From Vulcanimicrobiota bacterium (GTDB lineage: Bacteria > Vulcanimicrobiota > Vulcanimicrobiia > Vulcanimicrobiales > Vulcanimicrobiaceae): DNA of 64,000 nucleotides. Of the stretch, positions 59,105 to 62,906 are shown one piece after another. Location: positions 171,566 through 235,565 of the forward strand of contig CAWGBN010000005.1 of assembly GCA_963820825.1 (NCBI GenBank). Direction: 5' to 3'. The notes beneath the pieces are model-generated. The model worked only from the letters and a program-made list of their open reading frames with translations. It searched no databases and had not been told where the DNA came from. How positions within the stretch are numbered: the first letter of the stretch is position 1; each line of letters starts with the position of its first letter. The translations under genes and the position numbers were made by a program.

Positions 59105-60228
59105 TCAGCCCGAGCGCTTCTGGACCGCCGCGTGTCTGGCCTGGGCTAGGGCTAGTGCGTCGCCGACCCGGTCGATCATGGCGCTCTTCGCTCCGGCTAC
59201 GACGTGGCCATAGACGTTGAGAGTTGTGGACGCCTGCCCGTGGCCTATGACCGCCGAAACAGTATTCACGTCGCTCCCTTCAGCGAGGGCTGATGTAGCC
59301 ATGAAATGGCGGCACGAATGTAGGGTCGCTCCCTTGATTTCCGCGAGGCGCACCAGCTTCGCGAATGCCTTCGAGAGGCCATCGAGATCCGGCGGACCAC
59401 CGGCCTTATCAGCAAACACGAAATTTCTATCCTCGTAAGCGCCGTGCTCTGCGTGCAGGTTTTCAGCAGCTTGCTTTGCCCGCAACGCCCTCAGCGCTTC
59501 AACGGCTGCCGCTGACAGCGGAACGACTCGTTCACGTCCGGTTTTCGTAGTCTTCAAGAAGAACCCGCCGCGTCGATCTTCGCCAAAGGCTTGCCGCACG
59601 AAGATGCACCGATTTCGGAAGTCAACGGAATCCCATTGGAGCGCGGCCAGTTCGGCACGCCGACAACCAGTTGACAGAGCGATGAGAAGAAATGTCTCGT
59701 AGCCTGATCCTTCTGCTAGAGCGAGCAGCGTAGCCGCTTCATCGGCGGTCAGTGCCCGTGCTCTTGACGGGTTTGGACGTGGCGCTTCGATAAGGTTGGC
59801 AACGTTACGCCCTACTAGCGACATCCGCTCCGCCCATCGAAGCATTCGATGAATAAAACGATGCACCCGAACAAGGCTTGTCCCGCCCAACGGCTTACCG
59901 ATTCGTTTCTTTTTGCGATCTTCGCCAGAGGATAATTTACGAGTGTAGACGACAGGCTGGGAGCCTAGCTTAGCTAACAACTCTGCAATGTGAGCAGGTT
60001 TAAGTTTGGAGACGACGATTCCGCCCAACGCTGGCTCGACGTGATGCTTCCAGTGCTCTTCATATCGCGCATAGGTTGCAGGAGCAAGTCGGCTTTTCAC
60101 GTCTTGAAAGAACTTGTCTGCAACTTGCGAGAGCGTGAGTGTCTGAGTAGGAAGGTCGAAGCCCTGGTCGCGTGCTTGGAGCGCGTCCCGCTCCGCTTTT
60201 TGAGCTAGTTCCTTGGTGTCAAAGGGTT
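59105..60228 (-). pseudogene. Phage/ICE tyrosine integrase lacking its N-terminus (cut by an IS3 element)
   Basis: TGCRRAEL, KTTKT, LHSCRH, IGH, LNVY catalytic set. The ORF start in the track lies within the IS. Confidence 0.88.
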
Positions 60229-60240
60229 TGAGCCCATTTC

Positions 60241-60540
60241 TTAGTCCACCGGCGATTGTGGGATTGGTGTAGAAAAGTTTTCGACGAACTCCTTGGGCGT
60301 AAGATAGTTTAGCGACGAGTGCGGCCGAACCTCGTTGTAATCCACGAGCCATGCATCGGCCTCTTCGCGGATCTGCAGGAGAGTCCTGAAGACTTGCACG
60401 TTGAGGAACTCGTCGCGCACGCGAGCGTTGAAGGACTCGATCCAGGCGTTCTGTGCGGGTTTCCCGGGATCAATGAAGTGCAGCAGAACATTGTGATCGA
60501 TCGACCACTGCAGCATCGCGCCGGCGACGTTTTCCGGACC
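60241..60540 (-). pseudogene. 3' fragment of IS3 OrfB
   Basis: GPE...FIDPGKPAQNAWIESFNARVRDEFLN..YNEVRPHSSL. Confidence 0.9.
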
Positions 60541-60620
60541 GTGATACATACAAGACGGGGCGCTGCCCCCATGGCGAACGGAGGTGTATCTGACTCATCT
60601 CCGCTGGAGGCAACGACCCT

Positions 60621-61883
60621 ATGGCAAAGTTCCGTGCTGCTCCAACGGCGCCCGCCTGGCTCGCAATCGACGTCGCCAAAAACCGACACGTGGCGCTGCT
60701 GGAGGACGAGGCCGGCATTCGCCGGCGTTTGACAGTTCCAAACACGCAAGAAGGTTTCGACGAGTTGGCAGGGATTCTGGCGCCGCATCTTCCCTGCGAG
60801 GTCGCGCTGGAACCAACCGGAGACTATCACCGACCCCTGGCGAACTTCTTGCTCCGGCGAGGCCACCGCGTTCATTTCGTATCGTCGATCGCTACAAATC
60901 GGACGAGAGAAGCGCTGTTCAACTCGTGGGATAAAAACGATCCGAAGGATGCGCAGGTGATTCTGCATTTGCTCAAGAGCGGTACAACGCAGGTGTTCGC
61001 CGATCCACTGCAACGTGGCAACCAAGATCTTCAGGAACTGCTCGGTACCTATCGGCAGATCACCGACCGAAAGACGCGAGCCTACCATTCGCTGATGACG
61101 CACTATTTGCCGCTGTACTTCCCGGAAGCAGAGCCCTTCCTGAGCAATCCGCGCGGCGAGTGGTTCTTGGAGGTCATGCGCATAGCGCCATGCCCTTCCA
61201 CGGTCCTTCAATATACCAAAAGGACATTCGTCAAAAGGTTTACTGCAGCGGGAGGGCATTTTACATCTCGGCAAAGTCTCGTCGCCAGCTACTACGAAAT
61301 TGCCAAGGAAAGCGTGGGAATTCCAGTGGCGGCGGATTCGCAGGCCGCCCAGATGTTCCAACTCGCGATTGAGCAGTACATCGGCCTCATGAAGCTTCGA
61401 CGGCAGCTTCAGGAGCTCATTGACGCACAACTCGAGAACAACATCGATTATCAGCGCCTGCGCTCTATCCCTGGAATCGGCCCTATTGTTGCTCTAACGG
61501 TTCTCGCTGAAGGCGGAGATTTACGCCGCTTCAGCCACCATCGCAAATTTCTTAACTACTGTGGCCTTTCTTTGTCGACGATGCAATCCGGAACGTCACG
61601 CGGCCGACCGCAGCTCTCCAAACGCGGCAATGCTCGACTGCGATGGGCCTTCTGGATGGCAGCCAATGCTGCCATCAATCAGCGCCGAAACTCGTTTCGG
61701 AAAAAGTACGACGACTACGTTCGTCGCGATCCACTGGATGCCGATCTCAAAAGAAGAGCGTATGTCGCCGTAGCAGCGAAGATTGCGCGCGTCGCTTACG
61801 GCTTGATCAAATCTGGAAAAGAGTACCGCCACTATTTCGAAGCGGCGGTGCACGACGGGAGAATCCCTTCGCTGGGCCGTTGA
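60621..61883 (+). CDS. IS110-family DEDD recombinase/transposase
   Basis: AIDVAK, ALEPTG, KNDPKDA, SIPGIG, QSG catalytic-serine region, SKRGNARLR. GGAGG RBS. Confidence 0.95.
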   Translation: MAKFRAAPTAPAWLAIDVAKNRHVALLEDEAGIRRRLTVPNTQEGFDELAGILAPHLPCEVALEPTGDYHRPLANFLLRRGHRVHFVSSIATNRTREALFNSWDKNDPKDAQVILHLLKSGTTQVFADPLQRGNQDLQELLGTYRQITDRKTRAYHSLMTHYLPLYFPEAEPFLSNPRGEWFLEVMRIAPCPSTVLQYTKRTFVKRFTAAGGHFTSRQSLVASYYEIAKESVGIPVAADSQAAQMFQLAIEQYIGLMKLRRQLQELIDAQLENNIDYQRLRSIPGIGPIVALTVLAEGGDLRRFSHHRKFLNYCGLSLSTMQSGTSRGRPQLSKRGNARLRWAFWMAANAAINQRRNSFRKKYDDYVRRDPLDADLKRRAYVAVAAKIARVAYGLIKSGKEYRHYFEAAVHDGRIPSLGR

Positions 61884-62004
61884 GGCGACTACGACCTCGT
61901 AGATAATGCTCGGATCTCCCGATGGCAGCAAACTCCGTTTTGAGCTCGGTGAAGGCTCGTTTCCGAGACCTTGTGTCATCATGGTTGGAGCTATTGCGTC
62001 GTCG
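61857..62004 (+). ncRNA. Predicted bridge (seek) RNA with target-binding and donor-binding loops
   Basis: Two stem/internal-loop/hairpin modules (61857-61920, 61920-62004). Loop segments match both sides of the target and both sides of the donor junction. Confidence 0.8.
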
Positions 62005-62095
62005 AGGGGCATCTCGGCAAGGGTGTGCAAGCTCGGCTTTGCTGTCGACGGGCATCGTTATGCCTACTAGTGGGGTTGACTTTCGTACTTAGCTC

Positions 62096-62650
62096 GTTAT
62101 CAACGCGAAGGCGCGTGGGATAACCGCGGATCTGGGCGATGTCATCGAGCGTTCGAATTACGCGGCGGCTGGTGATCGAAAAGTCTGGGTCGACCGCGAG
62201 ACCTTCGCGGCTGAAGCGGTCCTCGATCGTCAGCAACCGCACTTTGCGCTTGGTCATGAGGATTTCGTGCATGAAATCCAGTCCCCATTCTTCATTGAGC
62301 TTTGTCGGAGCCGGTGAAACGTTGCCGCGCACCAATCGCACGCGTCGCTTCTTGCGCGGTCGCACCTGCAATCGCTCATCGCAATACAGGCGGCGCAGGC
62401 GTTTGTGGTTCATCACGAGGCCTTCACGCTTGAGCAGGATCTTAAGCCGGCGCCATCCGAATCTCGGCCGCTCTTGCGCAATGCAACGCAACCGATCGCG
62501 GACGTGCTCGTCGCCGGGGCGTTTGCGTGGTTTGTATCGTACGGTCGGTCGGGGGCAGGTCGCGAGGCGGCACGCTTGCCGCTGGCTGATCCCCTCGGCC
62601 TCTAACGCCCTCACCGCTTCCTTGCGCGCTGAGGGCCCCACCCGTTTTTT
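62096..62650 (-). pseudogene. 5' fragment of IS3 OrfB
   Basis: ISQRQACRL, RPRFGWRRL, WGLDFM, GYPTRLRVDN, breaking exactly at the IS110 end. Confidence 0.9.
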
Positions 62651-62906
62651 CGAATCACCTCGGACATCGCGCGGATCTCGAGGGCTTGACGCGCGATGAT
62701 GCGCTCCATCTGCGAGTTTTCGGATTCGAGCTCTTTCAGACAGGTGAGATCGCTGATGTCGAGCCCGGCGTATTTGCTTCGCCACAGTCGCAGCGTGTTG
62801 ACGTGAACGCCGTGTTTGCGAGCGAGCTCAGCTGCGGATCGGCCGGCGTCGAGCTCTTGAAGGATCGCGACGATTTGCGCTTCGGTGTAGCGCTTCGCTT
62901 GCGCAT
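62611..62906 (-). CDS. IS3 (IS407-like) OrfA (small indel near start)
   Basis: KRYTEAQIVAIL..ELARKHGV..WRSKYAGL..LKELESEN. Confidence 0.88.

Follow-up and report, generated by a model that had tools for sequence, protein, structure and literature searches.

Bridge recombinases are mined and engineered as genome-editing tools. In the guide RNAs described by Durrant et al. 2024 (PMC11208160), left guides bind the bottom strand by base pairing and right guides the top strand, all of them include the core, and the mining pipeline used there took in the elements' non-coding ends plus 50 nucleotides (nt) of coding sequence (CDS). The same paper reports subterminal inverted repeats of 7–17 bp for the IS1111 group. 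Siddiquee et al. 2024 (PMC11187229) presume that tnp and a long RNA are co-transcribed from a promoter at the circle junction and then processed, and a 2026 mining preprint (bioRxiv 10.64898/2026.10.21.760802) describes a search of intergenic sequence only. Here we describe an IS110-family element of 1.56 kb (60541–62097, + strand) in a 64,000-nt stretch of contig CAWGBN010000005.1 from a Vulcanimicrobiota bacterium (the window; positions are counted from its first letter). Judging from the DNA, we consider it very likely that this element has a 3' bridge RNA beginning inside the recombinase open reading frame (ORF), that the last codons are read both as RNA and as protein, and that the protein tail they encode is a by-product.

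An RNA structure that begins inside the recombinase gene

The ends of the element were set by comparing four copies and two empty sites from the same genome. Its ORF (60621–61883) encodes an IS110-family DEDD recombinase, with DEDD_Tnp_IS110 (PF01548; E = 7.6e-21, residues 15–168) and Transposase_20 (PF02371; E = 8.8e-28, residues 278–363) both above their curated cut-offs, and the protein of 420 amino acids (aa) ends in ...EAAVHDGRIPSLGR. With 212 nt after the stop codon compared with a left end of 78 nt, the long non-coding end lies downstream of the gene. Positions 61857–61883 read GGG AGA ATC CCT TCG CTG GGC CGT TGA and encode G-R-I-P-S-L-G-R-stop. A first-pass annotation, made from the letters of the window, had placed the 5' stem and the left target guide of a bridge RNA in these codons, and the placement holds: the codons are as it gave them, the stem covaries and the guide matches three insertion sites.

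Relatives were drawn from one-genome-per-species contigs, where 599 stretches matched, 530 were confirmed and the best 80 loci were kept (L009–L088; 43–78% identity, many phyla, cultured isolates included). Leaving out L049 and L067 as exact duplicates, the window and 78 loci gave an alignment of 79 distinct rows, on which RNAalifold predicted an outer helix and an inner hairpin; three further outer-helix pairs were added by hand. The outer helix joins columns 21–34 with 98–110 (61853–61866 with 61912–61924 in the window) and the inner hairpin columns 53–59 with 77–84 (61882–61898). Standard pairs make up 93.0% of the paired cells in these helices, compared with 79.0% in column shuffles, none of 500 of which reached the observed value, and 33–50% when the partners of the same two helices were slid. 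Two-sided changes occur in 16 of the 19 pairs (outer helix 9/12, inner hairpin 7/7), and the block UAGAUAAUG stands at or just past the ORF end in all 80 loci, exactly in 73 and with one mismatch in 7. The covariation supports an RNA structure that starts at 61853, inside the recombinase ORF. Because the 5' strand of the stem and the left guide are the last codons of the ORF, an RNA folding into the covarying stem must contain coding sequence, which bears out the first-pass claim that the guide overlaps the coding region of the mRNA.

The recombinase stop codon lies at or within the structure in 78 of the 79 rows: 49 have it within UAGAUAAUG, at the UAG (45) or the UAA (4) of a conserved UAGAUAA; 16 have it in the inner hairpin; 10, among them the window, have it in the guide loop; and 3 have it where the outer helix begins, at its first three bases. 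In the remaining row it falls a few bases upstream. The open frame across 61853–61883 might be thought an artefact of local sequence or assembly, for instance through loss of a stop upstream, given that the assembly is a metagenome-type bin, 85% complete, and that one copy in the genome (L002) has 7 gaps relative to the window. We give this explanation practically no credence, since no base differs among the window and the three further copies over 61702–61923, homologs P0002–P0006 (85–91% identical to the window protein) end at the same position, and the ORF reaches the loop in 75 of the 79 rows, across many phyla and in cultured isolates. In a cultured Acidisarcina, the RefSeq CDS of a plasmid copy runs to a TAA in the hairpin loop. 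With identical copies, the shared stop of P0002–P0006 and this RefSeq CDS, the overlap of guide and ORF is general in the group, being neither an artefact nor private to the window element.

Target and donor guides

The putative left target guide reads like the top strand across left flank and core at each of the three distinct insertion sites of the source genome (T1, T3 and T4), and can therefore pair with the bottom strand over nine contiguous positions, core GT included. Counted by eye, the pairing comprises nine Watson–Crick pairs at T3 and T4, and seven plus two G:U-type wobbles at T1. This guide sense agrees with the strand rule of Durrant et al. 2024, which supports the assignment. Downstream of the target loop, a second unit runs in the order stem, guide, hairpin, guide, and both of its guides covary with the element ends. 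Tested on 16 distinct guide/end combinations each (80 positions, 10,000 permutations), the left donor guide is paired with the right end at 72 of 80 positions against 60.3 ± 2.4 after permutation (0/10,000), and the right donor guide with the left end at 71 of 80 against 65.4 ± 1.6 (3/10,000). Because the downstream loop holds donor guides that covary with the element ends, we read the whole as a two-loop bridge RNA, target loop first and donor loop second. Another possible register for the right donor guide is UGUGUCAU at 61972–61979.

The left target guide was compared with its flank in 60 pairs, made up of the 57 of 80 loci with a usable junction and the three sites of the source genome. 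At the variable guide positions p-6 to p-3, 132 of 240 positions match, compared with 118.1 ± 4.9 for permuted flanks (42 of 10,000 permutations reach the observed count); farther out, matching is not above chance. The first-pass annotation had proposed, as a check, to look in homologs for hypervariable tail residues that track the target sequence; the residues do vary but, by these counts, they track the target weakly. The first core base pairs in all 60 pairs, 21 times by wobble. A left core AT accompanies a right core GT in 19 of 51 loci, which suggests that the left core is target-derived and the right core element-derived, and that a mismatch at the first core base is tolerated.

Several points weigh against a bridge RNA whose left target guide lies in the coding region. 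Covariation between this guide and the target is weak, most of the matching being at positions invariant in both, and the guide has an invariant G (60 of 60 pairs) at p-3, where the target varies. Guide and flank agree in 60 of 60 pairs at the two bases before the core and at the core T, a count that is circular at CC, which was required before the core, together with a left-end start pattern, when the left junctions of relatives were placed. Similarly, the right flank reads GTTGTC or GTTATC in 68 of 70 loci, a regex-defined and partly circular count, the right-junction pattern presupposing RTTRT[CA] after the core. The assignment of the left guide draws largely on invariant matches and on the analogy of its position with that in IS621. 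A single-sequence fold of 61850–62097 was no more stable than shuffles (z -0.18) and did not reproduce the consensus; an Rfam scan of 60300–62400 returned no matching family, its sole match being a chance long non-coding RNA (E 2.2); and the promoter that would form at the circle junction of the window element (see below) agrees with consensus at only 8 of 12 positions.

One way to read these points is that the functional guide RNA starts past the stop codon, that the stem containing 61853–61866 is an mRNA element (a 3' stabiliser or a translational brake) and that the match at 61872–61880 is a by-product of a shared motif. Weak guide–target covariation would be in keeping with this, and the published description of the mapped seekRNAs of ISEc11, ISPa11, ISKpn4 and ISPst6 puts them downstream of tnp, their boundaries being counted from the stop (Siddiquee et al. 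2024, PMC11187229). We judge it improbable. Bases 61872–61880 stand in the 5' arm of an internal loop, and the order of 5' guide, inner hairpin and 3' guide is the architecture of a target-binding loop, which the donor loop downstream repeats in its own guide–hairpin–guide layout. If 61872–61880 are set aside, no other left target guide is evident, and the variable guide positions still match above permutation.

A conserved target across the group

The near-constancy of the guide finds its counterpart in the target. Left flanks of the relatives read GAAYTCNGNNCC and right flanks RTTRTC, which in reverse complement is GAY AAY | GGN NCN GAR TTY, and translated left flanks start with G-[PSTA]-E-[FL] in 53 of 59 cases. 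A domain search of the flanks, leaving out those with fewer than 40 open codons, found Pfam rve_3 in 52 of 57 left flanks and Pfam rve in 53 of 61 right flanks. Nearly all of the rve matches in right flanks run up to the junction and stop there at profile position 74; those rve matches that fall in left flanks begin at position 75. The D-N|G-[PSTA]-E-F site, between these two profile positions, lies around the second catalytic Asp of rve transposases. By these sequence comparisons, the whole recombinase group inserts, always antisense, at the D-N|G-[PSTA]-E-F codons of rve (IS3-like) transposase genes. Within the group, the left target guide is predicted to be short and nearly fixed; because the target is a conserved protein-coding motif, the guide is nearly frozen and its covariation with the target is weak. 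An RNA-guided element can in this manner read a protein motif, the guide U's opposite third codon positions pairing with either synonymous codon. In the right target guide GAUAAU, U faces the two third codon positions (Asp, Asn) of the target and pairs with A or G on the top strand; GACAAU occurs in 5 loci, with G at that flank position in all 5. For ISEc21, which is of the IS110 type and has its RNA upstream, a target of this kind is reported (Siddiquee et al. 2024, PMC11187229), so the target class is already known.

The protein tail as translated RNA

We aligned 116 homolog C-termini, four of the 120 listed being shorter than 395 aa and left out. After the variable residues, the proteins end in ...GR, ...RAVEAxxTS or ...GPLRRSRPRR, each followed directly by the stop, and these three endings are one hairpin DNA read in different frames. 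The ORF reaches the loop in 75 rows, of which 51 are in the UAG frame, 15 in the UAA frame and 9 in the third. Over 75 rows, the entropies of the first, second and third codon positions (H1/H2/H3) are 0.73/0.65/1.51 over the 60 codons upstream of the stem, with H3 highest in 55 of 60, and 0.99/0.81/0.89 across the 5 codons of the stem, where H3 is the highest in 2 of 5. Where residues change in the stem codons, the 3' strand of the outer stem shows compensatory changes, and homologs of 409–412 aa end ahead of the tail. Because of the three frames, the lost codon periodicity, the compensatory changes and the homologs without a tail, the tail looks like incidental translation of the RNA and not like a protein feature.

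The motif G-[RS]-[IT]-P-[SL] is found in most of the 116 C-termini, as would be expected if the tail G-R-I-P-S-x-G-x were a functional peptide, for example an RNA-contacting C-terminus, whose conservation as protein explained the conservation of the nucleotides. This is very improbable: third positions are not the most variable in the tail codons, unlike in the 60 codons before them, residue changes follow the compensatory changes of the 3' strand, three frames are in use beyond the stem, the tail is missing from the homologs of 409–412 aa, and in three loci the stop is at the stem base. With the tail read as translated RNA, the protein end would be a clean natural case of an end dictated by RNA pairing instead of protein function. 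The first-pass annotation had reasoned that retargeting would change the C-terminal peptide. That the same bases serve both stands; the conflict it implied is small, given the three frames, the lost periodicity, the stops at the stem base and the conserved target.

The third frame is not closed by UAGAUAA, and all 9 of its users have a stop at the hairpin base or within the loop, whereas a stop in that frame falls within the loop in 33 of 66 non-users (row kinship not being corrected for). The pattern is a hint of selection on the place where translation stops.

Production of the RNA

The last ~10 codons (61853–61883) would thus have two readings, as guide RNA and as mRNA. As mRNA, they would give the tail ...H-D-G-R-I-P-S-L-G-R and then the stop at UGA. 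The bases would be set by RNA pairing and guide function, and the ribosome would continue to the first stop that the RNA offers, be it at the hairpin base (UGA or UAG) or in UAGAUAA (UAG or UAA). Such an overlap would be tolerable with one conserved coding motif targeted throughout the group and a guide that seldom changes. We infer that RNA and recombinase mRNA are transcribed together, the promoter probably arising at the circle junction, and that the RNA is then cut out within the coding region, one transcript serving as full mRNA or as guide and not as both. Should co-transcription followed by processing apply to this element, the 5' end of the RNA would have to be freed by a cut inside the ORF. 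Translation termination may, as the first-pass annotation suggested, be coupled to guide folding.

Candidate elements of such a junction promoter were seen. Of 51 distinct junctions, 16, with that of the window among them, have TTGAC[AT] at a distance of 13–14 nt from the right end, where it faces TAYNNN in the left end. In the window, the left-end partner of TTGACT would be GATACA/TACATA at 60543–60550, so that a sigma-70-like promoter would exist only after circularisation. A sigma-70 scan of 60450–62200 gave 1 site against 0.7 expected; this site, TTGAGG-16-GATAAT, lies inside the loop and was not taken as a promoter. Third-position entropy upstream of the stem gave no sign of a conserved internal promoter, being high throughout with low values at two-fold degenerate codons, although this is a weak test.

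The overlap may also be more than tolerated and form a built-in control circuit common to the group, an idea we hold only tentatively and think rather unlikely. In such a circuit the invariant motifs may double as stops, with UAGAUAA serving two frames and the hairpin-base U(G/A)(A/G) the third, so that the guide could gain or lose bases without ever lengthening the protein. Excision of the bridge RNA may remove the stop codon, each transcript giving enzyme or guide, and recombinase bound to the loop may keep translation of its own mRNA from terminating, with the recombinase-to-guide ratio being set in cis.

Features of the element and its surroundings

The features of the element are collected in the table below. 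The element splits a minus-strand IS3-family orfB between ...R-V-D-N and G-P-E-N..., and an uninterrupted site in the same genome reads TTTTCCGGACCGTTATCAACG.

Table 1. Features of the IS110-family element, its predicted bridge RNA and its insertion sites (window positions)
Feature	Position	Strand	Description
IS110-family element	60541..62097	+	core dinucleotide GT at both junctions (60541-42, 62096-97); antisense within IS3-family orfB
Left end (LE)	60543..60620	+	78 nt; first bases GAT plus core GT are the putative right-donor sequence
Recombinase ORF	60621..61883	+	420 aa; DEDD RuvC-like domain and Tnp domain; stop TGA 61881-61883
Codons H-D-G-R-I-P	61851-61868	+	contain the predicted 5' strand of the outer helix
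Outer stem of target-binding loop, 5' strand	61853..61866	+	predicted; within codons H-D-G-R-I-P; covariation
Target loop	61867..61881	+	predicted; between outer stem 5' strand and inner hairpin
Codons L-G-R	61872-61880	+	putative left target guide with core
Left target guide	61872..61880	+	putative; CUGGGCCGU (codons L-G-R); last two bases are core GU; top-strand sense
Stop codon TGA	61881-61883	+	first base after core and first two pairs of inner hairpin
Inner hairpin of target-binding loop	61882..61898	+	predicted; its first two paired bases come from the stop codon (G and A)
Conserved block	61900..61908	+	UAGAUAAUG; holds putative right target guide
Right target guide	61902..61907	+	putative; GAUAAU within UAGAUAAUG; pairs with top strand RTTRTC
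Outer stem of target-binding loop, 3' strand	61912..61924	+	predicted; covariation with 61853-61866
Left donor guide	61943..61950	+	putative; AGCUC(G)GU; matches right-end terminus AGCTC|GT
Right donor guide	61978..61982	+	putative; AUCAU; pairs with top strand GTGAT at left end
Candidate -35	62076..62081	+	TTGACT; promoter would form across the right end (RE)-LE junction of the circular form; consensus match only
Interrupted IS3-family orfB, C-terminal piece	60241..60540	-	starts G-P-E-N...; rve_3
Interrupted IS3-family orfB, N-terminal piece	62096..62785	-	ends ...R-V-D-N; rve profile positions 3-74
Insertion site T1	window and copy L002		left flank TTTTCCGGACC, core GT, right flank TATCAACG
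Insertion site T3	copy L003		left flank AACTCTGGGCC, core GT, right flank TGTCAAAA
Insertion site T4	copy L004		left flank AACTCTGGGCC, core GT, right flank TATCGCAG

At window position 61924, in the linker between target loop and donor loop, the other three copies have one extra C. Copy L002 has, besides its gaps, 16 mismatches in the element, by either decay or assembly error. Next to the element, an ORF of 415 aa (59105–60352, minus strand, start at 60352) resembles a tyrosine recombinase/integrase (...HSCRHFMATS...) and overlaps the 3' part of the interrupted IS3 orfB (60241–60549); the IS3 copy may itself adjoin or interrupt an integrase gene.

Comparison with known systems

Among described elements, IS621 (Durrant et al. 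2024, PMC11208160; Hiraizumi et al. 2024, PMC11208158) shares with the window element a recombinase of DEDD and Tnp domains, an RNA whose target-binding loop precedes its donor-binding loop on the 5' side, the strand rule for left and right guides and a 2-nt core in all guides. The likeness is one of architecture, with no Rfam match. The two differ in the place of the RNA, which is 5' of the gene in IS621 and here lies 3' and starts inside the ORF, and in the core, which is CT there and GT here (AT also being tolerated in targets). The seekRNAs of the IS1111 family (ISEc11, ISPa11, ISKpn4 and ISPst6; PMC11187229) resemble the predicted RNA in lying 3' of tnp; they are reported to map downstream of the stop, whereas here RNA and ORF overlap, and the window element has its bottom-strand match 5' (61872–61880) and its top-strand match 3' (61902–61907), which is the IS110-type order. 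No subterminal inverted repeats were detected in the ends of the window element, where the best inverted match is 5 nt. Such repeats, of 8–14 nt with a fixed offset of 2, occur in many proteobacterial and acidobacterial relatives (L030, L034, L038, L039, L048 and others) and in none of the closest relatives of the window. Of the IS1111-group characters, the window element thus has the long non-coding end and the guide RNA on the downstream side of the gene, and lacks the inverted repeats and the strand-match order. As the position of its RNA is IS1111-like but the repeats are absent and the strand order is IS110-type, we assign it no further than to the IS110 family, as an element with a 3' bridge RNA.

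ISEc21, of the IS110 type (Siddiquee et al. 2024, PMC11187229), is alike, by its description, in strand-match order and kind of target, and differs in having its non-coding region and seekRNA upstream of tnp. A DNA search of E. coli genomes with 61840–62000 gave no match. ISHne5, from the Extended Data of Durrant et al. 2024, was considered as a member of the group and excluded by its domain strings. The ISfinder cluster ISMex12/ISRel25/ISYps2 has the motif DKNDPKDA in common with the group, a likeness of that motif alone, and a paper that names ISYps2 has nothing on its target or RNA.

The first-pass annotation had placed the described bridge RNAs in non-coding ends. The accessible text of Durrant et al. 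2024, Siddiquee et al. 2024, a 2026 review, a paper on ISPpu9, two mechanism papers of 2025–2026 and the 2026 intergenic-mining preprint is in agreement, and in that text, figures and subscription-only papers being outside the scope, we found no description of target-specifying bases within a recombinase CDS. Overlaps of guide and CDS may sit unremarked in the models of Durrant et al. 2024, in which 50 nt of 3' CDS are included. Up to ~70 nt of the target loop are annotated as CDS in the group described here, and mining restricted to intergenic sequence or to short stretches of CDS would truncate the loop or miss the left target guide. Reprogramming such an element requires separating gene and RNA first.

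The mechanism class is known from the IS621 bridge RNA and the IS1111/IS110 seekRNAs. With ISDra2 TnpB, the overlap of the reRNA is with the scaffold, the guide lying outside the element. For ISDra2 TnpB (IS200/IS605), the reRNA or omegaRNA is described as a guide RNA that overlaps the 3' coding region of the effector and is cut from the effector mRNA (bioRxiv 10.64898/2026.09.09.750255). An reRNA within its own 3' coding region is the nearest precedent in concept; protein and RNA are unrelated to those considered here, and in the window element the target-specifying bases would themselves be codons.

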